A stretch of 64,000 nucleotides of DNA from Escherichia coli. Its GTDB lineage: Bacteria; Pseudomonadota; Gammaproteobacteria; Enterobacterales; Enterobacteriaceae. Every line of letters starts with the position of its first letter. The stretch's first letter is position 1. Where the stretch lies: the NCBI RefSeq assembly GCF_029227855.1, contig NZ_CP074356.1; one strand, given 5' to 3'. The notes under the pieces were generated by a model. The model did no database searches, was not told the origin of the DNA, and saw only the letters and a program-made list of their open reading frames with translations. Both the position numbers and the translations under genes were made by a program. This document shows positions 500 through 48,914 of the stretch, piece after piece.

Positions 500-775
500 A
501 TGTCGATGTACACAACCGCCCAGCTGCTGGCGGCAAATGAGCAGAAATTTAAGTTTGATCCGCTGTTTCTGCGTCTCTTTTTCCGTGAGAGCTATCCCTT
601 CACCACGGAGAAAGTCTATCTCTCACAAATTCCGGGGCTGGTAAACATGGCGCTGTACGTTTCGCCGATTGTTTCCGGTGAGGTTATCCGCTCCCGTGGC
701 GGCTCCACCTCTGAATTTACGCCGGGATATGTCAAGCCGAAGCACTTAGCATGGCTTTCTGAGGCTTTCGTGTAG
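500..775 (+). pseudogene. E: Major capsid protein gpE, 5' fragment (codons 1-82) running into island DNA
   Basis: MSMYTTAQLLAANEQKFKFDPLFL...SEFTPGYVKPKH matches lambda gpE residues 1-82. After base 745 the frame reads LAWLSEAFV and stops at 773-775. The rest of E resumes at 11872. Confidence 0.93.
735..744 (+). repeat. Left copy of the 10-bp direct repeat AGCCGAAGCA (attL core)
   Basis: Identical 10-mer at 11864-11873. Both copies lie on the E codons for K-P-K-H. Confidence 0.8.
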
Positions 776-872
776 CTGCTGGTTTTTACACTTAATCTTT
801 TGATAATAAAGAATAAGTTTATCTGGCGCTTTCACTGAATTTTCCTCGTTATCTGTGTGTTGCAATCATCTC

Positions 873-893
873 TGTATTGCAGCTTGTATTGCT
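873..893 (+). repeat. Tandem TGTATTGC motif (TGTATTGCAGCTTGTATTGCT), candidate arm-type Int binding site, left arm
   Basis: A near-identical 21-mer (TGTATTGCAGCATGTATTGCT) lies in the same orientation at 11768-11788. A degenerate third copy, TGTGTTGCAA, lies at 857-866. Confidence 0.5.
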
Positions 894-907
894 TTTTGGG
901 GCTAAAA

Positions 908-2143
908 ATGGCTGGCGAGAACAAACTGAGCGACAAAGCGCTTAAAGGATATCTGGGGAAACCCAGAGAAAAGCAGATCACCATTGCTGATGGAAAGGGG
1001 CTTTCTATTCGTGTGAGTACTAAAGGGGCTGTGAGCTTTGTTTTCTTCTACAGGTTAGCAGGTGGCCGGGCTGCTCCGGTCTGGCTAACGTTGGGTAAAT
1101 ATCCTGATATGTCACTCAAACAGGCAAGGGAAAAGCGCGACGAGTGCCGTGGTTGGTTGGCTGACAAACGTGATCCGCGTATCCAGATTAAGATTCAGGC
1201 TGAAGAACGCTTAAAGCCGGTCACAGTGGAGGATGCACTAAATTACTGGTATGAAAATTACTGTAAGGTGCGTCGTAAAACTCATGCTGTAACGCTTGGC
1301 AGATTTCGAAAGCATATCTTTCCCTATATCGGTCATTTGCCCGTAAATGACACTCACCTATATGAATAGCTGGACTGTTTTGACCGAATTAAACGTAATG
1401 CACCAGTTATGGCGGCGTATGTTTTTTCTGACACTAAATTAGCTCTTCGTTTTTGTCGGGTACGCCAGTACGCGACGTGTGATGCTTTAAAGGATTTGCG
1501 CATGAGTGATGTGGGGCAGATTGCAGGTAAGCGGGATCGGGTTCTGGATGAGGTCGAACTCGGCCAGCTCTGGAAGGCAATTTTTGTCGAGCCTGATTTA
1601 AAACTAATGTCTGAATACACGCGAAAAATGTTTGTGCTTTGTACAGTATTTGGATGTCGAATGAGTGAAGCCCGATTATCAGAATGGAGCGAATGGGATC
1701 TCGAAAGTTGGGTTTGGACTGTGCCAAAAGATCACTCAAAAACTGGTGTTGAAATCGTCAGACCAGTACCTGAAATTCTACGACAGTGGGTAACGGATGT
1801 TCACGAAGAGACAAAACATACTGGTTATGTGCTGGGAAGTCTGCGAATTAGAGAAAGCGTAAGCAAGATTGGGGGGAAAATCGGTAAACGTTTGGGCCAT
1901 GAAAAACAATGGTCACTACACGACCTTAGAAGAACGCTATCTACTCATCTAAGTGATCTCGGTGTTGAATTTTATGTAGTAGAACAACTGTTAGGCCATG
2001 CGCTACCTGGCGTGGCAGGTGTTTACAACCGGAGTAAGTTTATGGCTAAAAAACTGGATGCTCTGGAACTCTGGACTACATATCTCAATAGCATCGCAGC
2101 TGCTGATTCAAAAGTGACAATCCTCAAACAAAAGGCTGGTTAG
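908..2143 (+). pseudogene. int: P4-family tyrosine integrase interrupted by one in-frame amber codon
   Basis: ORFs 857-1369 and 1409-2143 are in the same frame, separated only by TAG at 1367-1369 (context LYE*LDCFDRI; TGG/Trp would fit). The C-terminal part has HDLRRT, LLGH and GVYNRS catalytic-type motifs. The ATG at 908 gives MAGENKLSDKALK. Confidence 0.85.
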
Positions 2144-2144
2144 C

Positions 2145-2375
2145 ATGAAAAAAATGGCAATTGTTGATAAAAAGGGTCTGGAGTACATTCCTAACATTGA
2201 CCGAATGATCCGTGAGAAAGAATGTCGGGAGCTAACTACTCTTGCGAACAGCACACGCTGGAAGCTGGAGAAGGAAGGAAAATTTCCTAAGCGGATCAAG
2301 ATTGGTTCCACTGCTGTTGCATATCGTCTTTCAGAAGTGCAGGCATGGATTCGAGGTGAGTGGGAAACAACTTAA
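2145..2375 (+). CDS. alpA: AlpA-family HTH regulator/excisionase-like protein
   Basis: 76 aa. IREKECRELTTLANSTRWKLEKEGKFPKRIKIGSTAVAYRLSEVQAWI fits the AlpA pattern (G-FP-P-K-G ... W-x-x-EV-x-W). The ATG lies 1 nt after the int stop. Confidence 0.8.
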   Translation: MKKMAIVDKKGLEYIPNIDRMIREKECRELTTLANSTRWKLEKEGKFPKRIKIGSTAVAYRLSEVQAWIRGEWETT

Positions 2376-2382
2376 CTATTAG

Positions 2383-3213
2383 GTGGGCATTGTGGCTATA
2401 TTTCATTATACAGATCTTTTTGGTTTGAAAGGTATATTAGACTCTAATTCTTTATGGGCTACAAACATATATTTCTTAAATGATAAAGAGGAGTCTAACC
2501 ATGGATGTGAATGCTTTCGAAATACAATTAAAATAGTTGATGACAATATCATTCCAAAAGATAAGAAAACTATTTTGCTCAAGTCTCTTGACATGTATGA
2601 GAAAGGGAGGTTACAAAAAGAAAAAGGGATTGATAAACATGTTTATAGCATCTCTTTTTGTAAGGAAAACGATAAGTTAAGTCAGTGGAGAGGTTACGGA
2701 AATAAACAGGGTGTTTGCATTGAGTTTGATGCGGATGAACTTGTGAGCTTTTCTCAAAATATTTATTTAAATTGTGTTGCACATGATGTTATATATTCAA
2801 ATAATAACGATATTACTAAGATGAGTAAGGAGTTGGGAGAGTTTTTTTCTTGTAATGGTATTAATATTAAAGAAATGAATGATCATTTTGTAACAATGGT
2901 CTCTACGTATCAATTTATATCTAAATACATCCCATTTTTTAAACATCCTAGTTTTATCGAAGAGAATGAATTTAGATTGGTATTTACTCCGTGGATGCAA
3001 ATGCCAGATGTGCACTTCAGAATAAATAATAATGGGATCATCCCTTATATCATCATTGATAATAAAGATAATAGAAAGTTACCAATTAAAAGCATTACAA
3101 TTGGCCCGACAAACGATTATGATTTCATTGAGGCTGGTATAAAAATGTTCTTGGATTCAAGAGGATTTAGTTCTGTGGAAATTAAATCCTCATCAATTCC
3201 ATTCAGGGGGTAA
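2383..3213 (+). CDS. DUF2971-like protein (AT-rich cargo)
   Basis: 276 aa with a GTG start. Motifs FHYTD...GIL, FLNDKEE, SISFC...DKLSQWRGYG..GVCIEF and KHPSFIEENEFR resemble the DUF2971 signature. The gene is markedly AT-rich compared with its neighbours. Confidence 0.6.
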   Translation: MGIVAIFHYTDLFGLKGILDSNSLWATNIYFLNDKEESNHGCECFRNTIKIVDDNIIPKDKKTILLKSLDMYEKGRLQKEKGIDKHVYSISFCKENDKLSQWRGYGNKQGVCIEFDADELVSFSQNIYLNCVAHDVIYSNNNDITKMSKELGEFFSCNGINIKEMNDHFVTMVSTYQFISKYIPFFKHPSFIEENEFRLVFTPWMQMPDVHFRINNNGIIPYIIIDNKDNRKLPIKSITIGPTNDYDFIEAGIKMFLDSRGFSSVEIKSSSIPFRG

Positions 3214-3258
3214 GGATTAACACTTTTAATCTATGATATTATAAAAATGGTGGATAAA

Positions 3259-3278
3259 GGCGACCAGAATTGGTCGCC
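3259..3278. terminator. Hairpin between the convergent cargo genes
   Basis: GGCGACCA (3259-3266) pairs with TGGTCGCC (3271-3278). Confidence 0.4.
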
Positions 3279-3344
3279 AATGTGAGTATATAGTTAGCCT
3301 TAATCAGAATACGAGGTTATCGCCTGATAGGCAATGTGAACAGT

Positions 3345-3701
3345 TCAATATTTAGGTGGTTCAACAAGAGCGTTTATCATTGCTCTCAAATTATCGCGAA
3401 CACTTATCCAAGTCTGTTCTGCTCGTTCTAACTCATCAGTGTACAACTTTAATGTTTTATCTATGCCATATGTGGCTATTAAATTTATAGCTTCTTGTAA
3501 TTTTTCAGGATTATTCCTTCTTGGGGGAGTGAATATACCACGGATTTTTCCGGTAATTAAAGCTTTACGGTGTCTACATAGAATACCTTTACTTCCTGCT
3601 GGACAATTACAAGTCATGATTAGCGAGCCAGAATCGTTTGATACAGTGACTATGTATACATCCAAACTACTGCTACTTGTTGCGAAGAATTCGTATTTCA
3701 T
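3345..3701 (-). CDS. Small SWIM-type zinc-finger protein
   Basis: 118 aa. CNCPAGSKGILCRHRKAL fits the CxC...CxH SWIM motif. Convergent with the DUF2971-like gene. Confidence 0.6.
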   Translation of the reverse strand: MKYEFFATSSSSLDVYIVTVSNDSGSLIMTCNCPAGSKGILCRHRKALITGKIRGIFTPPRRNNPEKLQEAINLIATYGIDKTLKLYTDELERAEQTWISVRDNLRAMINALVEPPKY

Positions 3702-3728
3702 GTGTTAGCTCCTTGACTTCAATTATTC

Positions 3729-3920
3729 TTATCCTTTTGGTTCAATACCGCGCCGTAGCAGCTCTTTGCGCCCTAATTCTTTAAGCCAGTTGGCTAGGCT
3801 TATGCCGTCGCTCTGCGCTTCTTTGTCGAATTGCTCTTTTAGCTCTGGAGAAATTCGCATTCTGAATTGTGGAGATTGCCCATCACCCTTAGGACTTTTA
3901 TCGCGTTTGATCGTTGACAA
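3729..3920 (-). CDS. Arc/Mnt-like ribbon-helix-helix repressor candidate
   Basis: SPQFRMRISPELKEQFDKEAQSDGISLANWLKE resembles the Arc N-terminus (PQFNLRWPREVLDLV...). I prefer the TTG start at 3920, which is preceded by AGGTGG. The ATG at 4043 in the ORF track would add a low-complexity extension that overlaps the divergent leader. Confidence 0.55.
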   Translation of the reverse strand: MSTIKRDKSPKGDGQSPQFRMRISPELKEQFDKEAQSDGISLANWLKELGRKELLRRGIEPKG

Positions 3921-3965
3921 GTGACCACCTATTGAATTAGCCTTTTCATTGTTAGGTGACCACCT
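3921..3965. promoter_or_regulatory. Two direct copies of GTGACCACCT, candidate operators in the divergent control region
   Basis: Exact 10-mers at 3921-3930 and 3956-3965. The second copy lies within the palindrome AGGTGACCACCT. The first abuts the repressor start. Confidence 0.4.
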
Positions 3966-3991
3966 TAACACGGGGGCACTTAAAAAAGCAA

Positions 3992-4022
3992 AGCCCGAAG
4001 GTGCTGGGAACACCAACGGGCT
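3992..4022 (+). ncRNA. Structured hairpin in the leader of the early operon (possible C4/CI-like immunity RNA element)
   Basis: AGCCCG-AA-GGTG-CTGGGAA-CACC-AA-CGGGCT forms a two-tier stem with a symmetric AA/AA internal loop. It lies about 40 nt upstream of an icd-like gene, the position of c4 in P1 immI. Confidence 0.3.
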
Positions 4023-4059
4023 TCTAACCACCAACGATAGCAACAGTATCGAGGTAGCT

Positions 4060-4263
4060 ATGAGAAATCATACCACACACCCGCAAGGGCGGGACCCGCA
4101 CAACCTGAATAAATACATCTGGCGTTTTATCGCCTTGAGTACGGCACAACCGCGCATGATTACCATCGAGGCCATCAGCGAACAGGAAGCCCGCCAGCAA
4201 TCCCCAACTGGCTGCGTGATGGTATTCGCCGCCCGTATTCGTCAGGAGGTGTGCCGTGCTTAA
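4060..4263 (+). CDS. Icd-like (cell division inhibitor-like) small protein
   Basis: 67 aa. KYIWRFIALSTAQPRMITIEAISEQEARQQSP...FAARIRQEV matches my memory of Icd-like proteins from P4-type satellites. GAGGT lies 5 nt upstream of the ATG at 4060. Confidence 0.55.
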   Translation: MRNHTTHPQGRDPHNLNKYIWRFIALSTAQPRMITIEAISEQEARQQSPTGCVMVFAARIRQEVCRA

Positions 4264-4441
4264 AACCTTCCGTGTATTTGCCCGAGCTGTTAACCCACTG
4301 GGCCACACAATTGGTATCACTCAGAACGTGAAGGCTGTTAATGTTCAGACGGCTATTGCTGCGGTGAGAAGCGAATCATCAGAATATGGCTTATCACAAG
4401 TCATTATTTCAGCAGTGTATGAATTAAAAGAGGTGCATTAA
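4256..4441 (+). CDS. Hypothetical protein
   Basis: 61 aa with a GTG start overlapping the upstream stop. Part of a tightly packed same-strand operon. Confidence 0.45.
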   Translation: MLKTFRVFARAVNPLGHTIGITQNVKAVNVQTAIAAVRSESSEYGLSQVIISAVYELKEVH

Positions 4442-4632
4442 TGCAGGAAATCACATTACACGAAGCCGCTGAACGTGCGCACCAGACAGAAATTATTTGC
4501 CGCCTTCTTGAGGTATACCCGAACAAAATTACAGATGCTGATATATCCGCGCTGGCGAGCCTACTGGCGCGCCTTTCGGGAAGTGTCGCTAGTTTCCTGA
4601 TTGAGGAAGAAAGTAAGCTGGTGGGGGATTAA
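4441..4632 (+). CDS. Hypothetical protein
   Basis: 63 aa. TAATG overlap with the upstream gene suggests translational coupling. Confidence 0.5.
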   Translation: MQEITLHEAAERAHQTEIICRLLEVYPNKITDADISALASLLARLSGSVASFLIEEESKLVGD

Positions 4633-4854
4633 ATGAATACAGAACGGGAAGTCTTTTTTAAATTGTTAGCATGTGCAGAAAGTTCATTAACTTTAAATAA
4701 TTCAGCAAAAGCAATATTAAATATGTGGCTTGATTGCATAAATGACAATGAAGATGCAAATATTGCTTATGGCCTGTTGTCACTTATTGATGAATCAGCA
4801 GAAAAACTCAATGACGCAATAAATAGTGCCCTGCTATCAAATAAGTCGAGTTAA
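4633..4854 (+). CDS. Hypothetical protein (AT-rich)
   Basis: 73 aa. The ATG directly follows the upstream TAA. Confidence 0.5.
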   Translation: MNTEREVFFKLLACAESSLTLNNSAKAILNMWLDCINDNEDANIAYGLLSLIDESAEKLNDAINSALLSNKSS

Positions 4855-4871
4855 GTCGAGGAATAAATAAT

Positions 4872-5171
4872 ATGGAAATGAAAAATTCTGGCTTTATTGC
4901 CAGCGGCCCCGCTCGGCCTGAATTTATGAACGGCGATATTTACCGCGATAAATACGGCGGCACGGTAACGATTAAAGGCGTGGCAGAACGGCGCATCACT
5001 TACCGCCGTGAGGGGTATAGCTATGACTGCGTGATGCCTGTTTATCAGTTCCGGCGTGATTTTTCCCTGGTATATGCCGCACCCCGCAGTAAGCCCATCA
5101 GCAGGGAAAAAGCGCGGGGAAACATCCAGAAAATGAAAAGCATGATTAACGCATTCAGGGGCAAAAAATGA
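4872..5171 (+). CDS. Hypothetical protein
   Basis: 99 aa. ATGA overlap with the primase-helicase gene. Confidence 0.55.
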   Translation: MEMKNSGFIASGPARPEFMNGDIYRDKYGGTVTIKGVAERRITYRREGYSYDCVMPVYQFRRDFSLVYAAPRSKPISREKARGNIQKMKSMINAFRGKK

Positions 5172-6919
5172 AACTGGCACCGAACTTAAAAAAACAGCCA
5201 CGCGACAGACTGACAGAGGTAATCATCTTTGCAGGTAGTGATGCGTGGAGCCATGCGAAAGAGTGGCGGGAATGGGCGGGTAAACATATTGCCGCCGACG
5301 ATGTGCCGCCTGTCGTGCTGGCTGATGAGCAACTGAAAAATATCACCGATTACCGGATCATTGATGAAGATCGTCAGTGTGTGCGTGTTTACCGCGCAGG
5401 ACATATCACAGAGCACAGCATGACGCAGATTGTTACGTTACTGGCTGTGGCTGGAGTGAAGACCGTACACGAATACGCGGGGATTACTGACACCAGCCCA
5501 GTGGATTTATCCGAGCAGTTGCCGCGACTCAAAGAGGAATGCGAGCGTGGGGAAAGTCTGGTGCTTAATCTTCCGACGAAGCAAAAGGCGCAACTTTCAC
5601 AGATGGCAGACAGTGAACGTGCACAACTACTTGCCGATCGCTTTGATGGTGTGTGTGTTCATGCAGAAAGTGAAATCGTCCACGTATGGCGCGGCGGGGT
5701 ATGGTGTCCGGTCAGCACAATGGAGCTGAGCCGCGAAATGGTGGCGATCTATTCAGAGCACAGGGCCACGTTCAGCAAACGTGTAATCAATAACGCCGTG
5801 GAAGCGTTAAAAGTTATTGCCGACCCCATGGGGGAGCCGTCCGGTGATTTGCTACCGTTCACTAATGGTGTGCTTAACCTGAAAACGGGGGAATTTTCTC
5901 CGCACTCGCCGGAGCACTGGAGCACCACGCACAATGGCATTGAGTACACGCCACCAGTAGCAGGGGAAAACATCCGCGATAATGCGCCAAATTTCCATAA
6001 ATGGCTTGAACATGCTGCAAGAAAAGACCCGCGCAAGATGATGCGTATATGTGCCGCGTTATACATGATTATGGCGAACCGCTACGACTGGCAGATGTTC
6101 ATTGAGGCCACCGGAGACGGGGGAAGCGGTAAGAGTACATTTACCCATATTGCCACCCTGCTTGCTGGCAAACAGAACACCGTAAGCGCGGAGATGACAT
6201 CACTCGATGATGCAGGAGGGCGCGCGCAGGTTGTCGGGAGTCGTCTTATCGTCCTTGCCGATCAGCCGAAATATACGGGGGAAGGCACGGGCATCAAGAA
6301 AATCACGGGAGGCGATCCCGTTGAAATTAACCCGAAATATGAGAAGCGATTCACGACGATAATAAGGGCGGTGGTACTGGCAACCAATAACGACCCGATG
6401 ATCTTTACCGAACGGGCCGGAGGTGTGTCACGCCGTCGGGTGATTTTCCGGTTCGACAACATTGTAAGGGAGGACGAAAAAGACAAGGAATTACCGGAAA
6501 AGATAGCGGCAGAAATCCCCGTAATTATCCGCCGCTTGCTGGCTAATTTTGCTGACCCTGAAAAGGCACGGGCTTTATTACTGGAACAGCGTGACGGTGA
6601 TGAAGCTCTGGCAATAAAGCAGCAAACGGATCCGGTTGTTGAGCTTTGCGCGGCGCTGGAGTTTCTGGAGGAAGCTCGTGGGCTAATGATGGGCGGTGGT
6701 GGTGACACCGTGAAGTACACGACCAGAAACAGCCTTTACCGTGTCTATATGGCCTTCATGGCATACACAGGAAAGGGGAAATGTTTGAGCGTGAATGAGT
6801 TCGGAAAGGCTATGAGGTCAGCGGCGAAAGTTTACGGATATGAATATATTACGCGAAAAGTTAAGGGAGTCACGCAGACCAACGCAACGACTACTGATGA
6901 TTGCGATGCGTTTTTATAA
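5168..6919 (+). CDS. P4/D5-family primase-helicase (replication initiator, pri-rep type)
   Basis: 583 aa. FHKWLEHAARKD...YDWQMFIEATGDGGSGKSTF fits the phage/plasmid primase P4-family C-terminal NTPase with a Walker A motif. An iteron field lies immediately downstream. Confidence 0.8.
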   Translation: MKLAPNLKKQPRDRLTEVIIFAGSDAWSHAKEWREWAGKHIAADDVPPVVLADEQLKNITDYRIIDEDRQCVRVYRAGHITEHSMTQIVTLLAVAGVKTVHEYAGITDTSPVDLSEQLPRLKEECERGESLVLNLPTKQKAQLSQMADSERAQLLADRFDGVCVHAESEIVHVWRGGVWCPVSTMELSREMVAIYSEHRATFSKRVINNAVEALKVIADPMGEPSGDLLPFTNGVLNLKTGEFSPHSPEHWSTTHNGIEYTPPVAGENIRDNAPNFHKWLEHAARKDPRKMMRICAALYMIMANRYDWQMFIEATGDGGSGKSTFTHIATLLAGKQNTVSAEMTSLDDAGGRAQVVGSRLIVLADQPKYTGEGTGIKKITGGDPVEINPKYEKRFTTIIRAVVLATNNDPMIFTERAGGVSRRRVIFRFDNIVREDEKDKELPEKIAAEIPVIIRRLLANFADPEKARALLLEQRDGDEALAIKQQTDPVVELCAALEFLEEARGLMMGGGGDTVKYTTRNSLYRVYMAFMAYTGKGKCLSVNEFGKAMRSAAKVYGYEYITRKVKGVTQTNATTTDDCDAFL

Positions 6920-6932
6920 AAAATGGCAATGG

Positions 6933-7161
6933 TTATCTACCTTGTCTACCTGACTGAAAGAAAATACTTTTATTTCAATGTATTAATGCAGGTAGATAAC
7001 TATTTTTCACTGTCTACCTGTTATCTACCTTATCTACCCATTTTTGTAGACAGGTAAGGAGACGGGTAGAGATGAGGTAGACAGCTATTTGGGGCTGTCT
7101 ACCTCCCTGAAACCCGCGCCATTACTGGCCTGATAACTAATCAGGTAGACAAGGTAGACAA
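6933..7161. repeat. Iteron field, candidate satellite origin of replication
   Basis: At least 10 copies of GGTAGA(C/T)A or its complement, in both orientations: 6933-6941, 6942-6950, 6991-6999, 7011-7018, 7021-7029, 7030-7038, 7077-7085, 7095-7103, 7144-7152, 7153-7161. AT-rich spacers lie around 6955-6990. Confidence 0.75.
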
Positions 7162-7208
7162 GGTGGTGGTGCACAAAAAACTTTTTAAACGAGGGGGTAA
7201 AAATAAAA

Positions 7209-7466
7209 ATGCACACTTCAGGAAAACTGAACAAACATATAAAGCCACATTACCGCGCCCTTGATATGGCTGAACACTGGCTAAGGGTGGCGATTAAGGC
7301 AATAGACCGCAACGCCGGGGAAGGATACGCGAAAGCACATCCCGAACTGATAAGCGCATTCATGACAACGGCGGCTGCAAACTTTGCCACGCTGACCGAA
7401 CGGGAGATTGCTGAAGCGGAGGAAGTGACAACAATCAATATTAAGTCCGGAGAGCAGGCAGCATGA
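7209..7466 (+). CDS. Hypothetical protein
   Basis: 85 aa. ATGA overlap with the SSB gene. Confidence 0.5.
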   Translation: MHTSGKLNKHIKPHYRALDMAEHWLRVAIKAIDRNAGEGYAKAHPELISAFMTTAAANFATLTEREIAEAEEVTTINIKSGEQAA

Positions 7467-7912
7467 CGGCGCAAATATCAGTTTACGGGCGGTTGGTGGA
7501 CGACCCGCAGACAAAACAGACCAGCAAGGGCACCCCCATGACGCTGGCGCGTATGGCGGTATCACTGCCCTGCAGTCAGTCGGATGACGGTCTGGCGACG
7601 TTGTGGTTATCTGTCCTGGCGTTTGGCAGACAAGCCGACGCGCTGGCAAAGCATCACAAAGGCGAACTCCTGAGCGTGGCGGGTAACATGCAGATGAGCC
7701 AGTGGACTGGACAGAACGGCGAAACGCGGCAGGGCTGGCAGGTTATCGCAGACAGCGTAATCAGTGCGCGATCGGTGCGACCGGGCGGCAAAAAAGGCCA
7801 ACAGGGGCAGGCTACTGACGCACTGAACAGAGCAAAACAACAGGCAGATCAGCAAGGAAGCCAGCCACCAGAGGGAGATAATGAGCAATGGGGAGATGAT
7901 ATCCCGTTTTAA
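7463..7912 (+). CDS. ssb: Single-stranded DNA-binding protein (SSB family)
   Basis: 149 aa. OB-fold-type N-terminus (VYGRLVDDPQTKQT...WLSVLAFGRQAD...KGELLSVAGNMQMSQW), a Gln/Gly-rich linker, and the canonical acidic tip DDIPF. Confidence 0.8.
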   Translation: MTAQISVYGRLVDDPQTKQTSKGTPMTLARMAVSLPCSQSDDGLATLWLSVLAFGRQADALAKHHKGELLSVAGNMQMSQWTGQNGETRQGWQVIADSVISARSVRPGGKKGQQGQATDALNRAKQQADQQGSQPPEGDNEQWGDDIPF

Positions 7913-7923
7913 ATATTGCCAAT

Positions 7924-7954
7924 AAAAAAAGCCGGAAAAAATAAATTTTCCGGC
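7924..7954 (-). terminator. Hairpin with its T-run only on the minus strand, between the replication and capsid modules
   Basis: GCCGGAAAA (7931-7939) pairs with TTTTCCGGC (7946-7954). A7 at 7924-7930 gives a U-tract only for leftward transcription. Confidence 0.4.
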
Positions 7955-8128
7955 ATGCTACATAAATCCCGACCAAAGGGAGTGAAGATATTAACACTAA
8001 TTGTCCGCACTGAAGTTGTCACACCAAAACTTTATACAACATTGCACTCGGTTGCATGTGTTCGCATGACAAATATCGGTGATAGCATATATCCACAATT
8101 ATTTTTAATGAATGCAAAGAGGATGCGT

Positions 8129-9169
8129 ATGGTTGATTTATATTCGCCTACTCAGCTTGTACAGGTAGTTAATGCTGTAGATGTACAAAAACAACTAAAT
8201 GCGTTGTTTACCAGTTTGTTTTTTACTCGCTCGGTAATGTTTGAATCGCGCGATATTATTCTTGATACAATCGACGATCCAAATATCCCAATTGCAGCGT
8301 TTTGTTCTCCTATGGTGGGTAGTAAAGTTTCACGTGACGAAGGGTACGAATCAAAAACAATTCGTCCAGGCTATATGAAGCCGAAAAGCAGCATTGATCC
8401 AAATAAGTTAGCTGTGCGCCCTGCTGGTGTGTCACCTGAGCAATACAATGCTTTTGGGGCGCGTAATATTAAAGTTAAACAGGCGATTGTAAATCAGGCT
8501 AAAGCTATTCGTGCACGTATTGAATGGCTTGCTGTTCAGGCAATCACAACGGGGAAAAATATCATTGAGGGCGATGGTATTGAACGTTATGAGCTGGACT
8601 GGAATATAAAACCACAAAATATCATCACTCAGTCTGGCGGTACTGAGTGGTCAGGTAAGGATAAAGAAACTTTTGATCCAAATGATGATATTGAGAGCTA
8701 CGCAGAATTTAGTGAGGGCGTCACTAATATCATCATTATGGGTGGTAATGTATGGAAGAAATACCGTTCATTCAGAGCGATAAAAGAGGCTTTGGATACC
8801 CGTCGTGGTTCTAATTCCGAACTGGAAACGGCCCTTAAAGACCTTGGTGATTCGGTGAGTTTTAAAGGGTATATGGGCGATGTTGCGATTGTTGTTTACA
8901 GCGGGCGTTATACCGACGAGGACGGAACAGAAAAACATTTCCTTGATCCTGATTTGATGGTGCTTGGCAATACGGCTCTTCAGGGGATTGTCGCCTATGG
9001 CGGTATTCAGGATCCGGAGCTAATCCGAATGGGGCTGACTAAAGCCGAACTTGCACCGAAAAACTATATTGTGCCTGGTGATCCGGCTATTGAATATGTG
9101 CAGACACATTCAGCACCACAGCCAATACCGGCCCGCATCAATCGTTTTGTTACCGTTCGCATTGGCTAA
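8129..9169 (+). CDS. Satellite-encoded major capsid protein, gpE (lambda E) family
   Basis: 346 aa. The C-terminal half aligns by eye with lambda gpE: ITQSGGTEWSGKDKETFDPNDDIESYA, LDTRRGSNSELETALKDLG, YMGDVAIVVYSGRY, MVLGNTA, PGDPA. The N-terminal half is much more diverged. The ATG at 8129 has AAGAGGA 6 nt upstream. The longer ORF from 7916 has no homology support. Confidence 0.88.
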   Translation: MVDLYSPTQLVQVVNAVDVQKQLNALFTSLFFTRSVMFESRDIILDTIDDPNIPIAAFCSPMVGSKVSRDEGYESKTIRPGYMKPKSSIDPNKLAVRPAGVSPEQYNAFGARNIKVKQAIVNQAKAIRARIEWLAVQAITTGKNIIEGDGIERYELDWNIKPQNIITQSGGTEWSGKDKETFDPNDDIESYAEFSEGVTNIIIMGGNVWKKYRSFRAIKEALDTRRGSNSELETALKDLGDSVSFKGYMGDVAIVVYSGRYTDEDGTEKHFLDPDLMVLGNTALQGIVAYGGIQDPELIRMGLTKAELAPKNYIVPGDPAIEYVQTHSAPQPIPARINRFVTVRIG

Positions 9170-9178
9170 GGGGGAGCA

Positions 9179-9520
9179 ATGGCTACTCATTACACTGAAC
9201 TCATGGCTGGCACTGAAGCACTGGTGACTACGCTGGGGATATTTTCAGCTAATAAAGGGGTAATTCCTGCATTTACGCCACTGATGCAGGAAGATGCAAC
9301 AGGTGCACTGGTGGTATGGGATGGTTCGAGCGTAGGTAAAGCGGTTTATGTTTCCGCTGTACAAATCGACACCGCGAAAAAAACACAGGCTCAGGTCTAT
9401 AAGACAGGTGTCTTAAATGTTGATGCTCTGAACTGGCCTGAGTCTGTTAAAGAACTGTCAGTAAAGGTTGCAGCGTTTGTTGGCTCAGGTATTTCTGTTC
9501 AGCCGCTGGCTCGTGTGTAA
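9179..9520 (+). CDS. Satellite-encoded head decoration protein, gpD family
   Basis: 113 aa. Shares TPLM, LVxWDG, YKxG, LxWPE and AFxGxGIS with lambda gpD in the same order. Confidence 0.75.
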   Translation: MATHYTELMAGTEALVTTLGIFSANKGVIPAFTPLMQEDATGALVVWDGSSVGKAVYVSAVQIDTAKKTQAQVYKTGVLNVDALNWPESVKELSVKVAAFVGSGISVQPLARV

Positions 9521-9531
9521 AGGGGGATACA

Positions 9532-9915
9532 ATGCAGAATGATTACAATGACCTTAAGCCAATTGCCGAAATGATGTACCCGAATCAAGCTGTAGAGGAA
9601 TTAAAAGCTATCGCTGACAAAATGTGTTTAAGCGAGCGCCTTGTTGATATGAATCAGGTGATGGAAATTACAACCCTGAGTCGTCGTACACTGCTAAACC
9701 TTGAGGCTAGTGGAGAGTTCCCGGAGCGTGTGCAGGTTACGGAAGGGCGTAAGGCCTGGTATTTAAGTGAAGTGATCGACTGGATAAATAATATTCCTCG
9801 CGCTTCTGAATATTGCCGCGTACCTGTCCCAAAAAAGCCAGATGCGGCGCTATGCCTCAAGATTGAGCGTGTACGCCGCAATGCACGGGATGGTCGCTAT
9901 AAGCTGATTGGTTGA
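9532..9915 (+). CDS. AlpA/MerR-like winged-HTH protein immediately upstream of cos
   Basis: 127 aa. MNQVMEITTLSRRTLLNLEASGEFPERVQVTEGRKAWYLSEVIDWI fits the AlpA pattern. It is the last gene before the cos site. Confidence 0.65.
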   Translation: MQNDYNDLKPIAEMMYPNQAVEELKAIADKMCLSERLVDMNQVMEITTLSRRTLLNLEASGEFPERVQVTEGRKAWYLSEVIDWINNIPRASEYCRVPVPKKPDAALCLKIERVRRNARDGRYKLIG

Positions 9916-9922
9916 TGAAATT

Positions 9923-9948
9923 AGGACCCGCTCTGGCTGGCGGGTCCT
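9923..9948 (+). terminator. Hairpin after the capsid module
   Basis: AGGACCCGC (9923-9931) pairs with GCGGGTCCT (9940-9948), followed by TTCC (a weak T-run). Confidence 0.45.
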
Positions 9949-9954
9949 TTCCGG

Positions 9955-10140
9955 CGATCCAGAACGTTACGGGGCGTCAGGCGCGCAGTTTTTCGCTATT
10001 TGTGAAAATTTTCCTGTTTAAGGCGTTTCCGTTCTTCTTCGCCGTAACTTAATGTTTTTATTAAAAACACCCCCTAAAAAGAAAGGAAACGACAGGTGCT
10101 AAAAACAGGCTTTTTGGCCTCTGTCGTTTCCTTTCTCTGG
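9955..10140 (+). other. cos: Lambda-type cos site (cosN plus cosB R3-I1-R2-R1) with no adjacent terminase genes
   Basis: CGTTACG|GGGCGTCAGGCG|CGCAGTTTTTCGCTATTTGTGAAAATTTTCCTGTTTAAGGCGTTTCCGTTCTTCTTCG...GAAAGGAAACGACAGGTGCT...GGCTTTTTGGCCTCTGTCGTTTCCTTTCTCTG is collinear with my memory of the first ~180 bp of lambda. The R-site repeats CGTTTCC lie at about 10023-10034, 10081-10095 (inverted) and 10121-10135. The predicted 12-nt end at 9972-9983 matches lambda GGGCGGCGACCT at 7 of 12 positions. Confidence 0.85.
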
Positions 10141-10479
10141 TTTTGTTGCCATCCGTCGCGGTCTATCACCAGAAAAAATCTTATCCCTGAGTTGAATCAG
10201 GCCCTATTCAGAAGCGGCCAATAACGCGCCGCTAGCTTCACTTCATAGTTATGGCCTACTTCTGCGCCATTGCAATTGCTTTATGCGCCTTGATGGTGGA
10301 ATATAGAGCAAGCAGTTTGCGAATAACAAAGTTTCATATGTTTTTTGCTGTGTGGCTAGACAACTTTACAGCAGAGTTTTGTGTCAGTTCTTTATGTGTG
10401 CAAGCAAGCTTGAGGGGGAATTACTTCTGGCTGTATCTTTGCTTAAGAACAGCAATAATTTAATCATAAGGAAATGTAT

Positions 10480-10506
10480 ATAAGCCTGATTAAATTTCAG
10501 GCTTAT
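10480..10506 (-). terminator. Hairpin just downstream of the TIR gene
   Basis: ATAAGCCTGA (10480-10489) pairs with TCAGGCTTAT (10497-10506), 8 nt past the stop of the minus-strand gene. Confidence 0.5.
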
Positions 10507-10513
10507 TGAAATG

Positions 10514-11656
10514 TTAACTCCTTATTAGAGAGTAAATTCCATCCTCTTTAAGGAAGTCTATTACTTCAAAGAATGAGATAAAGAATTCCCAAGAACCAAA
10601 AGCATATGCATGAATTTCGTAAGGTGCAAAATGGAATCTAAATCCATCACTATTTATTGTGAACGAGTCTAAGTTACTATCCATGATACCCGTTGCAAAC
10701 GTACTAATGTCGTCCTCACTTGGTTTTTCACCAGTTTTCTCCCAAAATTCACGAGCTGATTCAGAGATTATTTTTTGTTTTATCTTATTAATCGCTTCTT
10801 GCTCTTTCCCTTCGGTAAATACATCCCATAAACTAAATTTGTATGCGTAGTCATCCTTGGTTATTACGAAATTACTAGTTTCAAAATGACTGTTAGGGTG
10901 TGCTGCTCCCGCACCATACCAATGTACGGAATGAAGGATGCTCATGACATTTTCGTTACAGTATGAGATGTTATAACTTTCATTATAGGAACTAGTGTAA
11001 GTGTGTTTATATTCTTCATCCCAATATGGTGTTCCTGGCCATAGTGATGTGCGTTCAGAAAAAATATGTAAAGCCGCTTTTCCTGAAAAGTAATCACTAA
11101 TGAGTTTTGCTGATTTCGGTAATGTATGGCTTTCAATTCTTGGATATGCTATTTCAATTTCATGCCCTGGGATCTTGTTATATTCTTCCTTGAAAACCTC
11201 GCTGCTAAAGTTAAATGGCCCATAAGTGATACCTTGAGATATTTCAAGTTTTTGTTGCGATGCTGCTAATCTTAAAGATCTAGATAAAATGTCCCAACCA
11301 TCATTTCTCTTAAAATCAATGAATTGGAGCTTGCTTGATATGTAGGCGGGTACTTCGCAATCATCAATAAGTAATGGTATCACGAACACATCATCTGGTT
11401 TGTAATACTTTAGTTTATCAATGGCGTCATTTATTTCGCGGCGAATATAACCATTTTTCTGAGTGCTCACTTTGCTAAGGATAAGGATTATCAAGTTTGA
11501 ATTAGCGAAGTTTTTTTGGATTTCATAATCCCAGTTTACGCCAGCGGGTATATCTTTTACATCCATCCAAGGGGAATATCCTCCACTTTTTAGCCTTTCA
11601 TAGATTTCTTCAGTTATCGTTTCATCTTCTTTTGCATGAGCAAGAAAAATTTTCAT
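10514..11656 (-). CDS. TIR-domain protein fused to a DUF4163/DUF3298 (RsiV-like) C-terminal domain
   Basis: 380 aa with no signal peptide or TM segment visible. The N-terminus (MKIFLAHAKEDE...GYSPWMDVKDIPAGVNWDYEI...SNLIILILSKVSTQKNGYIRREINDAI) fits the TIR_2 pattern, including the conserved Glu position. The C-terminus has IEIAYPRI... and HWYGAGAAHPNSHFETSNF...FSLWDVF, resembling the DUF4163 and DUF3298 motifs. AT-rich. Confidence 0.7.
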   Translation of the reverse strand: MKIFLAHAKEDETITEEIYERLKSGGYSPWMDVKDIPAGVNWDYEIQKNFANSNLIILILSKVSTQKNGYIRREINDAIDKLKYYKPDDVFVIPLLIDDCEVPAYISSKLQFIDFKRNDGWDILSRSLRLAASQQKLEISQGITYGPFNFSSEVFKEEYNKIPGHEIEIAYPRIESHTLPKSAKLISDYFSGKAALHIFSERTSLWPGTPYWDEEYKHTYTSSYNESYNISYCNENVMSILHSVHWYGAGAAHPNSHFETSNFVITKDDYAYKFSLWDVFTEGKEQEAINKIKQKIISESAREFWEKTGEKPSEDDISTFATGIMDSNLDSFTINSDGFRFHFAPYEIHAYAFGSWEFFISFFEVIDFLKEDGIYSLIRS

Positions 11657-11767
11657 TGAATATTCCTTTATAATTTAACTAATTAAGTGAAGGAGGCTTT
11701 ACTTGGCTGTGTTAGAAAAAATTCGGTTTGTTTTTTGTACGATGCCAAGAAGGCTTTTCCCTAACCA

Positions 11768-11788
11768 TGTATTGCAGCATGTATTGCT
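11768..11788 (+). repeat. Tandem TGTATTGC motif (TGTATTGCAGCATGTATTGCT), candidate arm-type Int site, right arm
   Basis: Matches 873-893 at 20 of 21 positions, in the same orientation. Confidence 0.5.
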
Positions 11789-11863
11789 ACGTAATTCTGC
11801 ACCCTCTCATTTATAAAATAAATCTCTGTTAAATCAAGTATCTTTTTTCTATTTGACTCATGT

Positions 11864-11873
11864 AGCCGAAGCA
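11864..11873 (+). repeat. Right copy of the 10-bp direct repeat AGCCGAAGCA (attR core)
   Basis: Identical to 735-744. Followed by TGAGGTGAATCCGCAG, the continuation of lambda E (H-E-V-N-P-Q). Confidence 0.8.
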
Positions 11874-12699
11874 TGAGGTGAATCCGCAGATGACCCTGCG
11901 TCGCCTGCCGGATGAAGATCCGCAGAATCTGGCGGACCCGGCTTACCGCCGCCGTCGCATCATTATGCAGAACATGCGTGACGAAGAGCTGGCCATTGCC
12001 CAGGTCGAAGAGATGCAGGCAGTTTCTGCCGTGCTTAAGGGCAAATACACCATGACCGGTGAAGCCTTCGATCCGGTTGAGGTGGATATGGGCCGCAGTG
12101 AGGCGAATAACATCACGCAGTCCGGCGGCACGGAGTGGAGCAAGCGTGACAAGTCCACGTATGACCCGACCGACGATATCGAAGCCTACGCGCTGAACGC
12201 CAGCGGAGTGGTGAATATCATCGTGTTTGATCCGAAAGGCTGGGCGCTGTTCCGTTCCTTCAAAGCCGTCAAGGAGAAGCTGGATACTCGTCGCGGCTCT
12301 CATTCCGAGCTGGAGACAGCGGTGAAAGACCTGGGCAAAGCGGTGTCCTACAAGGGGATGTATGGCGATGTGGCCATCGTCGTGTATTCCGGACAGTACG
12401 TGGAAAACGGCGTCAAAAAGAACTTCCTGCCGGACAACACGATGGTGCTGGGGAACACTCAGGCACGCGGTCTGCGCACCTATGGCTGCATTCAGGATGC
12501 GGACGCACAGCGCGAAGGCATTAACTCCTCTGCCCGTTACCCGAAAAACTGGGTGACCACCGGCGATCCGGCGCGTGAGTTCACCATGATTCAGTCAGCA
12601 CCGCTGATGCTGCTGGCTGACCCTGATGAGTTCGTGTCCGTACAACTGGCGCAATCGTGGCCCTTCGGGGCCATTTTCTCTCTGTGGAGGAGTCCATGA
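11872..12699 (+). pseudogene. E: Major capsid protein gpE, 3' fragment (codons 82-341), with loss of the normal stop
   Basis: HEVNPQMTLRRLPDEDPQNLADPAYRRRR...DPDEFVSVQLA matches lambda gpE 82-341. The expected TAA is CAA (12652-12654), so the frame runs 15 more codons (QSWPFGAIFSLWRSP) to TGA at 12697-12699. Confidence 0.93.
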
Positions 12700-14445: not shown

Positions 14446-15186
14446 ATGCCTGTACCAAATCCAGTAATGCCGGTGAAAGGGGCCGGGACCACACTGTGGG
14501 TTTATAAGGGGAACGGTGACCCTTATGCGAACCCGCTTTCAGACGTTGACTGGTCGCGTCTGGCTAAAGTTAAAGACCTGACGCCCGGCGAACTGACCGC
14601 TGAGTCCTATGACGACAGCTATCTCGATGATGAGGATGCGGACTGGACTGCGACCGGGCAGGGGCAGAAATCTGCCGGAGATACCAGCTTCACGCTGGCG
14701 TGGATGCCCGGAGAGCAGGGGCAGCAGGCGCTGCTGGCGTGGTTTAATGAAGGCGATACCCGTGCCTATAAAATCCGCTTCCCGAACGGCACGGTCGATG
14801 TGTTCCGTGGCTGGGTCAGCAGTATCGGTAAGGCGGTGACGGCGAAGGAAGTGATCACCCGCACGGTGAAAGTCACCAATGTGGGACGTCCGTCGATGGC
14901 AGAAGATCGCAGCATGGTAACAGCGGCAACCGGCATGACCGTGACGCCTGCCAGCACCTCGGTGGTGAAAGGGCAGAGCACCACGCTGACCGTGGCCTTC
15001 CAGCCGGAGGGCGTAACCGACAAGAGCTTTCGTGCGGTGTCTGCGGATAAAACAAAAGCCACCGTGTCGGTCAGTGGTATGACCATCACCGTGAACGGCG
15101 TTGCTGCAGGCAAGGTCAACATTCCGGTTGTATCCGGTAATGGTGAGTTTGCTGCGGTTGCAGAAATTACCGTCACCGCCAGTTAA
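14446..15186 (+). CDS. V: Major tail tube protein V
   Basis: 246 aa from the ATG at 14446. [22 protein letters not shown]...AEITVTAS matches lambda gpV, including the Ig-like C-terminus. Confidence 0.93.
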
Positions 15187-40402: not shown

Positions 40403-40492
40403 AAAAAAAGCCGGCATCATGCCGGCCCAAAAAATATAAACAAGACGATAAAAGGCTAATAACGGAGGCATCATGACACAGAAAAATAAAAA
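40403..40492 (-). ncRNA. rseX: Candidate RseX sRNA
   Basis: The minus strand has TTCAAT-18 nt-TACAAT promoter-like hexamers (TACAAT = 40504-40499). About 90 nt downstream lies a terminator (GCCGGCA/TGCCGGC at 40410-40426, plus T7). From memory, K-12 rseX (about 91 nt) lies in the yedR-yedS intergenic region on the yedS strand. I cannot recall its sequence to confirm. Confidence 0.4.
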
Positions 40493-48827: not shown

Positions 48828-48914
48828 AACACATCAGATTTCCTGGTGTAACGAATTTTTTAAGTGCTTCTTGCTTAAGCAAGTTTCATCCCGACCCCCT
48901 CAGGGTCGGGATTT
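48828..48914 (+). ncRNA. dsrA: DsrA small regulatory RNA
   Basis: AACACATCAGATTTCCTGGTGTAACGAATTTTTTAAGTGCTTCTTGCTTAAGCAAGTTTCATCCCGACCCCCTCAGGGTCGGGATTTTTTT matches the DsrA sequence from memory, including the terminator hairpin. Confidence 0.93.

Follow-up and report, generated by a model that had tools for sequence, protein, structure and literature searches.

We have analyzed a window of 64,000 nucleotides of Escherichia coli DNA (the whole of the stretch, from contig NZ_CP074356.1), and within it the control region at positions 3921-4059. This lies between a leftward gene encoding a ribbon-helix-helix (RHH) protein and the rightward early operon of a helper-embedded phage-inducible chromosomal island (PICI). 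The region is probably a two-layer switch of the lysogeny type, in which an Arc-like repressor acting on two operators would be combined with a cis-antisense RNA directed against the start of the first early gene, the product of which is Icd-like. The first-pass annotation of the same DNA had pointed to four elements, namely a leftward Arc-like RHH gene facing the early operon, a duplicated 10-mer, a two-tier hairpin at 3992-4022 and an icd-like open reading frame (ORF). We find all four, and the hairpin now appears to belong to a different RNA from that originally supposed.

Much of the evidence comes from comparison with related loci. The 63-amino acid (aa) type of RHH protein was confirmed at 102 places in a collection holding one genome per species. 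Eighty loci were fetched and kept, spanning many genera of the Enterobacterales, together with four copies from E. coli. Individual loci are designated L followed by a number where they need to be distinguished.

An RHH repressor and two predicted operators

Exact copies of GTGACCACCT lie at 3921-3930 and 3956-3965, and neither strand of the 64 kb has a third. There is one further match with a single mismatch, at 12553, and that number equals the chance expectation. The pair extends to a 20-nt direct repeat, TCGTTGACAAGTGACCACCT and TCATTGTTAGGTGACCACCT, with a spacing of 35 bp, and each 10-mer forms the core of a 12-bp pseudo-palindrome with the consensus AGGT-NNNN-ACCT. These are the predicted operators O1 and O2. 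They lie among the following elements, where P_R is the rightward early promoter and P_L the candidate leftward promoter of the RHH gene.

3729-3920, minus strand: RHH repressor gene, 63 aa, with a TTG start at 3920-3918 and stop at 3731-3729
3914-3919, plus strand: -35 element of P_R, TTGACA, encoded by RHH codons 1-3, its position being the same in 60 of 69 unique relatives
3938-3943, plus strand: -10 element of P_R, TAGCCT, after an 18-nt spacer, with a probable start at about 3948-3951
3919-3930: predicted operator O1, AAGTGACCACCT, a 12-bp pseudo-palindrome in the P_R spacer that overlaps the RHH start codon
3954-3965: predicted operator O2, AGGTGACCACCT, with arms AGGTG and CACCT, which covers the P_L -10 element and lies at about +4 to +17 relative to P_R
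3970-3962, minus strand: candidate extended -10 element of P_L, TGtTAAGGT (TGTTAAGGT), with a probable start at about 3955

What sets the repeats decisively above chance is comparative: the two-site layout recurs in about 70 related loci from many Enterobacterales, comprising most of the loci outside a divergent Pantoea group. The positions are fixed, with one palindrome abutting the RHH start and the second lying 30-35 bp further on. The outer arms AGGT...ACCT are kept among the relatives, and the central bases change with the sequence motif of the RHH beta-strand in the following manner.

Beta-strand PTFQIR (46 loci): operator core GTACGTAC
Beta-strand PQFRMR (8 loci): operator core GTGGTCAC or GTGACCAC
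Beta-strand PQFKMR (3 loci): operator core GTGGCCAC
Beta-strand PPFHMR (6 loci): operator core GTGTACAC
Beta-strand PMFNVR: operator core GTATAGAC
Beta-strand PMLPIR: operator core GCATATAC

In L003, with 78% identity to the window, the two central bases are inverted, and this is identical in both copies of the operator. The residues of Arc that contact the bases are Gln9, Asn11 and Arg13, and in a profile alignment Q18, R20 and R22 of the RHH protein lie opposite these. The operator core co-varies strongly with the residues aligned to Arc Gln9 and Asn11. Co-variation of this kind between protein and site suggests that the 10-mers are the operators of the repressor, and is the strongest support that can be had short of a binding assay. 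The 10-mers thus behave as the first-pass annotation had suggested.

The protein itself is closely similar to Arc in its predicted fold. When the RHH family was used in a profile search of the PDB the best solved relative was P22 Arc (E = 0.0077), with residues 11-58 matched to Arc 2-49. A model calculated with AlphaFold2 (AF2) has a mean predicted local distance difference test score (pLDDT) of 80.8 overall and >90 over the core, with an extended segment at 18-24 followed by helices at 25-37 and 42-56. A Foldseek search with this model gave Arc (1myl and 1par) as best match, with a probability of 0.99-1.00 and a root mean square deviation of 1.0 Å over 42 columns, and the next matches were AmrZ, CopG and RHH antitoxins. 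The modeled chain therefore has the N-terminal beta-strand and two helices, within about 45 residues, that characterize the RHH fold. We found 55 homologues across the Enterobacterales, and most of the full-length copies are 63-64 aa. In the RefSeq copies of the island the gene is unannotated, and the PGAP pipeline calls a spurious pseudogene on the opposite strand in its place.

The placement of TTGACA is fixed in most of the relatives, and together with the TAnnnT that follows, it puts O1 within the P_R spacer and O2 just past the start site. A TAnnnT sequence follows the -35 element by 16-18 nt in 47 of 69 relatives, and in 41 the distance is 18 nt. In L020 a promoter scan independently reports TTGACA-18-TAGTAT. 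The -35 element is embedded in coding sequence, where the codon for Ser2 of the RHH protein is TCA in 65 of 65 loci despite the existence of six serine codons. On the other strand, 54 of 69 relatives have a TGnTAnnnT sequence 40-95 nt away from the RHH start, usually at one and the same offset beside O2, compared with 10% of shuffled sequences. We infer from this that the element is P_L, the promoter of the RHH gene, and that it would be repressed through O2. The minus-strand AGGTGG within O1 is likely to be the Shine-Dalgarno sequence of the RHH gene. The region is not the plain divergent intergenic space of the first description, since the RHH start codon lies inside P_R, and the promoter of the RHH gene is likely to lie downstream of the rightward start site.

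A predicted antisense RNA across the start of the icd-like gene

The second layer lies between O2 and the beginning of the icd-like coding sequence. Its elements are as follows, P_as being the predicted promoter of the antisense RNA.

4075-4067, minus strand: extended -10 element of P_as, TGgTATGAT, inside codons 3-6 of the icd-like ORF
3982-4061, minus strand: predicted sar-like cis-antisense RNA, ~80 nt, with two stem-loops
4025-4060, minus strand: SL1, the 5' stem-loop of the antisense RNA in its minimum free energy (MFE) structure, complementary to the icd-like Shine-Dalgarno sequence at 4051-4055 and the AUG at 4060
3990-4024, minus strand: SL2, predicted terminator stem-loop of the antisense RNA, based on covariation and strand bias
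3982-3987, minus strand: U-run, TTTTTT, the predicted 3' end of the antisense RNA, the sequence after the stem in the window being UGCUUUUUU

At the center of this region is an inverted repeat, 3991-4003 and 4011-4023, with 13-nt arms that are 85% complementary and a 7-nt loop, and this is the two-tier hairpin noted earlier. A hairpin is found in every relative, in widely different sequences. We aligned 26 examples of equal length without gaps, and in this alignment 14 of 16 hairpin pairs exhibit compensatory double changes. Paired bases occupy 81.5% of the cells, compared with 40-55% when the partners are slid relative to one another. The covariation score is 0.614 as against 0.244 in shuffles, and none of 500 shuffles scored as high.

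The pairing also distinguishes the two strands. There are 51 cells that are G.U on the minus strand, and hence C.A mismatches on the plus strand, and only 18 the other way. In calculations on 80 unique homologues the minus-strand hairpin was the stabler of the two in 79, with a mean of -21.4 kcal/mol compared with -16.1 kcal/mol (p = 9e-15). A strand bias in the pairing rules out a DNA palindrome and favors a transcript of the minus strand. A run of U residues follows the hairpin in 37 of the 71 main-group relatives, and the window is among those that have it. In L014 and L020 the scan flags the hairpin element as a terminator on the minus strand.

Upstream on the same strand, 68 of 71 relatives have a TAnnnT sequence at a distance of 41-45 nt from the hairpin, irrespective of the protein that is encoded there, and in 29 it is preceded by TG at -15/-14. 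Some relatives have an Icd-like protein there, others an unrelated ORF of 59, 96, 150 or 176 aa. Even a 6-nt shift of the ATG leaves the spacing of P_as and the hairpin unchanged. Opposite position 2 of the P_as -10 element, 66 of 67 loci have a third codon position at which a change to C would be synonymous; nine different codons are involved, and the base there is always T and never C. The hairpin had been taken for a structured element of the icd leader. The G.U asymmetry, the U-run and the -10 element at fixed distance together favor the terminator stem of an RNA made from the opposite strand.

The predicted antisense RNA folds with an MFE of -36.1 kcal/mol (z = -6.49), compared with -23.5 kcal/mol (z = -3.03) for the plus strand. 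The stem of SL1 covaries between CGTTA/TAACG, CGATA/TATCG and TCAAC/GTTGA. In many relatives the loop of SL1 holds an anti-Shine-Dalgarno sequence, facing a hairpin of the mRNA that has the Shine-Dalgarno sequence in its loop, and this arrangement suggests that pairing might be initiated by loop-loop contact. A near-invariant CTRACCA sequence pairs with the 5' end, AGCCA(U), inside SL1. We had considered whether a tRNA-like minihelix on the plus strand followed by ACCA might be a substrate for RNase P. This was dropped, because the strand test favors the minus strand and CTRACCA is explained by the pairing within SL1.

As a prediction, the element has the features of the functional class of sar-like RNAs, namely a promoter that lies among the first target codons but on the other strand, and an RNA that covers the ribosome binding site (RBS) and ends in a terminator hairpin. 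A search of both strands of 3600-4500 with Rfam at E ≤ 10 gave no match, including none to C4, isrK, c4-a1b1 or sar, and there was none at the gathering score in the control regions of 20 relatives. The predicted antisense RNA family is absent from Rfam 15 and is unannotated.

The target of the switch

The gene that would be controlled, and the partner of the RHH gene, are the following.

4060-4263, plus strand: Icd-like gene, matching NCBIfam NF033153 'host cell division inhibitor Icd-like', and opening the early/replication operon that runs to the primase at 5168-6919
3345-3701, minus strand: gene for a SWIM zinc-finger protein (Pfam SWIM, E = 2.6e-5), 27 nt downstream of the RHH gene, with an AAGGAG Shine-Dalgarno sequence before its ATG

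The match to NF033153 scores 67.8 bits, the cut-off being 25 (E = 6e-19), and the icd-like ORF stands as first described. The next ORF begins at 4256. As this overlaps the end of the icd-like gene, the downstream genes may be coupled to it. The RHH and SWIM genes probably form one operon, and the SWIM protein could be a sensor or antirepressor partner in the switch.

The mechanism that we propose is as follows. In the resting state RHH dimers bound at O1 and O2 would block P_R, and the icd-like gene and the replication operon would be off. As O2 overlaps the -10 element of P_L, the repressor would also limit its own synthesis. The RNA from P_as, fully complementary to the icd-like leader with its Shine-Dalgarno sequence and AUG, would end at the hairpin and U-run at 4024-3982. 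It would pair with any early transcripts that escape the repressor and so block translation of the icd-like gene, probably triggering decay or cleavage. On derepression P_R, with its consensus -35 element, would fire head-on across P_as about 110 bp away, and the mRNA would outrun the antisense RNA. Candidates for the inducing signal are an antirepressor, AlpA and the co-transcribed SWIM protein.

What was observed directly is the sites and their conservation, the co-variation of operator and beta-strand, the covariation and strand bias of the RNA, and the constraint on nucleotides in both of the promoter elements that are embedded in coding sequence. From these sequence features we infer that the protein binds, where transcription starts and stops, what the regulatory outcome is and what might induce the switch.

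Alternative explanations

A number of observations weigh against the scheme as we have drawn it. P_as has no recognizable -35 element, and half of the P_L motif is the arm of operator O2. A simple promoter and terminator scan of 3600-4500 reports nothing, and none of the three promoters of the window passes it, being too weak in one hexamer. That scan demands at least four matches out of six in each hexamer and an uninterrupted stem, and the TAGCCT of P_R goes unflagged because only three of its six bases match; we have used the relatives instead. For the RNA, the plus strand folds as well (z = -3.03), and the covariation was measured on a subset of 26 sequences picked for equal length of the hairpin. 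Alignment of 54 full-length antisense RNA sequences with MAFFT, analyzed with RNAalifold, recovered SL1 only and not SL2. We attribute the loss of SL2 to indels that shift its arms out of register, and this is why the ungapped subset of equal length was used. Finally, 34 of 71 relatives, those of the Pectobacterium and Citrobacter groups among them, lack the U-run, so that intrinsic termination is not universal. The terminator of P22 sar has no long U-run either, and this softens the last objection.

Transcripts from P_as that serve as the RHH mRNA, or extend into it, are a real alternative. There would then be no separate small RNA. P_as would be the promoter of the RHH-SWIM operon, the hairpin would be an attenuator or stability element in a 5' untranslated region of ~140 nt, and the antisense relation to icd would be a by-product. 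The relatives that have no U-run would be accommodated in this way, and so would the Pantoea loci, where the hairpin lies ~30 nt upstream of the RHH gene and there are no operators. It is also the case that P_L depends on a short motif overlapping an operator. However, the canonical stem and U-run in the window and in 36 other main-group relatives would stop most transcripts, and TGnTAnnnT is fixed beside O2 in 54 of 69 relatives. Moreover, the sar RNA of P22, which shares the geometry, is a discrete species. We consider this alternative unlikely, although it is the best placed of those discussed here.

A slightly less likely explanation is that the hairpin acts in the leader of the plus-strand transcript, as an attenuator, a processing site or a stabilizer, and that the minus-strand signals are incidental. 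This is consistent with the z-score of the plus-strand fold and with the near-invariance of CTRACCA beyond the hairpin. A second hairpin on this strand presents or sequesters the Shine-Dalgarno sequence, and half of the relatives have no minus-strand U-run. Yet the plus strand has C.A mismatches where the minus strand has G.U pairs (51 compared with 18), its hairpin is the weaker by the mean free energies given above, and it has no U-run of its own. CTRACCA is explained as the partner of the 5' end in SL1, and synonymous sites keep the TAnnnT of the minus strand. All these favor the antisense RNA.

The repressor layer has its own competitor, in which the RHH protein would be a HicB-type antitoxin that forms a toxin-antitoxin or defense pair with the SWIM protein, regulating only itself and exerting no control over the early operon. 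The name given to homologues by NCBI is 'HicB family antitoxin', there is a Pfam HicB match at E = 5.5e-4, and a co-oriented gene lies downstream. That match scores 20.2 bits against a cut-off of 21 and covers the RHH part of HicB only. The protein has just 63 aa and no RNase H-like domain, and no HicA is adjacent; some loci have the SWIM protein as neighbor and others have none. L002, L004 and L086 lack the SWIM gene, and in them the RHH-operator-icd layout persists. O1 lies in the spacer of a rightward consensus promoter. We regard a role confined to an antitoxin as improbable, and the repressor of the early operon as the better description of the protein.

Least probable by some distance is a processed immunity RNA of the P1 C4 or P4 CI kind, same-sense and in the icd leader, with the hairpin as one of its parts. 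The position is analogous, the P4 CI RNA (of the C4 family) being directly upstream of an Icd-like ORF, and C4 and isrK matches are reported in some PICIs (PMC10111431). However, the searches described above found no C4, isrK or c4-a1b1 here or in the 20 relatives, and the P4 control gave 74.9, 60.8 and 44.1 bits. There are no complementary target repeats, and in 79 of 80 homologues it is the opposite strand on which the stem pairs better.

Comparison with known systems

The closest analogue is the immI region of phage P22. In the P22 genome record mnt lies on the left, and the overlapping promoters Pant and Pmnt contain operators for Arc and Mnt. The sar RNA is a 70-nt transcript of the opposite strand, with its promoter at 15097-15125 in the first codons of ant, its 5' end at 15090 one base before the ATG, and a long terminal hairpin. 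The island similarly has a leftward gene for an RHH repressor, and palindromic operators within overlapping opposed promoters. The antisense RNA predicted here is of the same size range, 70-80 nt, with its promoter in the first codons of the regulated gene, its 5' end at the start codon and a long GC-rich hairpin. The geometry agrees with that of sar to within one base, the -10 element lying at ATG+8 to +13 here and at +7 to +12 in P22. The P22 operator Omnt, AGGTCCAC-G-GTGGACCT, shares the AGGT...ACCT ends of O1 and O2.

There are also clear differences. The island has only a single RHH gene, where P22 has two, and lacks an arc gene between the promoter and the antisense RNA. The target is an Icd-like gene and replication operon, where in P22 it is the antirepressor, and the element belongs to a satellite rather than a phage. 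The P22 promoters are back-to-back and overlapping, whereas those of the island are apparently face-to-face. The Rfam sar model (RF00262) finds nothing in 3600-4500 at E ≤ 10, compared with 97.8 bits for the P22 control, and an nhmmer profile of the present RNA family exhibits no similarity to P22 or P4 and does not find P22 sar. Judged from sequence, the element probably works in the manner of immI and sar, yet it is not demonstrably a member of the sar family.

The first-pass annotation had looked to P1 and P4 for its model of combined protein and RNA immunity, and its interpretation as a whole is supported in part. The RNA layer does seem likely, but it is not of the C4/CI type. The C4 covariance model that the annotation had proposed for checking this gave no match at E ≤ 10 on either strand of 3600-4500, and the phage P4 control was readily detected, with C4 (RF01695, clan CL00128), isrK and c4-a1b1 all matched at the scores cited above and its CI RNA preceding an Icd-like ORF. 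Membership of the C4/P4 CI RNA family was rejected on this ground, and no signal for the isrK or c4-a1b1 target repeats was found in 3600-4500. There remains a likeness to P4 and to the immI region of P1 and P7, in that an RNA regulator lies directly upstream of an Icd-like first early gene, and in P4 as in the island the operon continues into primase. The CI and C4 RNAs are, however, of the same sense as the message, processed from the leader by RNase P and active on repeated target sites (seqA and seqC; a and b). In the island the RNA is predicted to be antisense, with its own promoter, and there is in addition a protein repressor with operators.

In the SymR/SymE type of pair, and in type I toxin-antitoxin pairs, a short antisense RNA starts just inside a coding region and covers the RBS of a small protein that is potentially toxic. 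The antisense RNA of the island has the same placement, and Icd-like proteins are annotated as inhibitors of cell division. The difference is that in the relatives the same RNA module precedes first genes of 59, 96, 150 and 176 aa. Because such different genes follow it, the module appears to guard the start of the operon rather than one toxin.

The island and its setting

The island is ~11 kb in length (about 745-11870) and splits a lambda-like prophage's major capsid gene E, the two halves of which lie at 473-745 and 11878-12699. It contains int, alpA, a gene for a DUF2971 protein, primase, a single-stranded DNA-binding protein (SSB), its own capsid and decoration genes, and one cargo gene; the capsid gene runs to 9169 and the decoration gene is at 9179-9520. 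It is thus a helper-embedded PICI (HE-PICI) of the capE type, lying inside and co-oriented with a lambdoid late gene, and having int-alpA, a replication module and its own capsid. A helper-embedded PICI of the same type, 11capE, has been described (PMC10111431). It likewise occupies ~11 kb in a lambda-like capsid gene E and has int, alpA, primase, SSB and its own capsid gene. Its non-hypothetical genes were treated as unidirectional, and C4 and isrK RNAs were mentioned for some PICIs (PMC10111431). The leftward RHH gene, the operators and the antisense RNA are all absent from that description of 11capE (PMC10111431).

Some further features of this copy were observed. The integrase gene, 908-2143 on the plus strand, has an in-frame stop at codon 154 (1367-1369), and in the VCSW7 copy it is a single intact coding sequence of 411 aa. 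Given this stop, the present copy is perhaps deficient in excision, which would leave the capsid gene of the helper permanently split. There are two proteins of the AlpA family (Pfam PF05930, E = 3e-15 and 7.5e-9), one at 2145-2375 on the plus strand after int, and a longer one at 9532-9915 on the same strand, beyond the genes for the capsid and decoration proteins. At the right end of the island the cargo gene (10514-11656, minus strand) has an N-terminus that by eye resembles a Toll/interleukin-1 receptor (TIR) domain. The otherwise near-identical VCSW7 island has an 'abortive infection family protein' in the cargo position, which looks like a hotspot for defense genes. At the gathering score, Rfam finds only DsrA (48828-48914, plus strand, 102.5 bits) and RseX (40403-40492, minus strand, 96.7 bits) in the window. 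Both are far from the control region, and they place the window in the dsrA-yedS region of the E. coli chromosome.

Distribution and modularity

Part of the sequence 3729-4263 is matched in 1528 of 5426 complete E. coli genomes. Most of these matches contain only the hairpin, leader and icd, beginning at about 3980-4018 and continuing onward. In the copies of this kind that we opened, the leftward gene encodes a different, 59-aa protein of the 'YlcI/YnfO family', with triple palindromes of its own. These are GTGGCTGACAC in L002 (2890-2990) and GTGTT(C/T)AACAC in L086 (2400-2460). L002 has clear divergent promoters, with TTGACG-17-TAGTAT. As the leftward gene and its palindromes differ beside the same icd module, the RNA/icd and repressor modules must recombine independently of one another.

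In some E. coli islands, such as L087 (2353-2871), an 'ash family protein' pseudogene is annotated over the hairpin, leader and start of icd. In these islands, Icd-like fragments are duplicated around the RHH gene, a pattern that suggests frequent recombination at the module.

The Pantoea group (L074-L084) has another arrangement. There are no operators, and a covarying hairpin with U-run lies only ~30 nt upstream of an RHH homologue, in the stretch about 30-70 nt ahead of it, on the same strand. In L074, the one member of the group that was scanned, genes for the small RNAs OmrA/B are nearby. The Pantoea arrangement is a different, chromosomal use of the module.

We searched 50,697 phage records for the cassette. 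No match to 3900-4270 was found with blastn, and tblastn with the RHH protein matched three records. Literature searches on Icd-like proteins with antisense RNA, PICI with small RNA, YnfO/YlcI, and PICI with ribbon-helix-helix found no description of this switch. The literature that we found on induction of Gram-negative PICIs has the AlpA activator only and no repressor, and the paper on capsid-forming PICIs (cf-PICIs) uses the word 'repressor' zero times. Homologues of the RHH protein appear in the literature only as accessory genes, called 'HicB antitoxin' or 'YlcI/YnfO prophage protein'. The island type, RHH repressors and sar-like antisense RNAs are each already known. In the literature searched we found no account of the three combined into a cassette that controls Gram-negative satellites, nor of the repressor gene, which is unannotated, the specificity code or the RNA family.

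It is possible, and we advance this more tentatively than the switch itself, that the cassette is a portable immunity module of many Gram-negative PICIs, cf-PICIs and HE-PICIs. A conserved sar-like RNA would guard the first early gene, and an exchangeable RHH protein, of at least eight specificity classes and replaced by the unrelated 59-aa RHH of YlcI/YnfO type in most E. coli copies, would set the hetero-immunity between satellites resident in the same cell. Were this so, helper phages would have to defeat the switch, and not only activate alpA, for an island to be induced.

If the model of the two-layer switch is correct, it would provide a mechanism for silencing both the replication of the satellite and a potentially toxic Icd-like protein. 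It would add one more unannotated family of small RNAs to the genomes of enterobacteria. The natural correspondence between RHH beta-strand and operator would constitute a table of specificities that could be useful for engineering, and the logic of P22 immI would have been reused in satellites.

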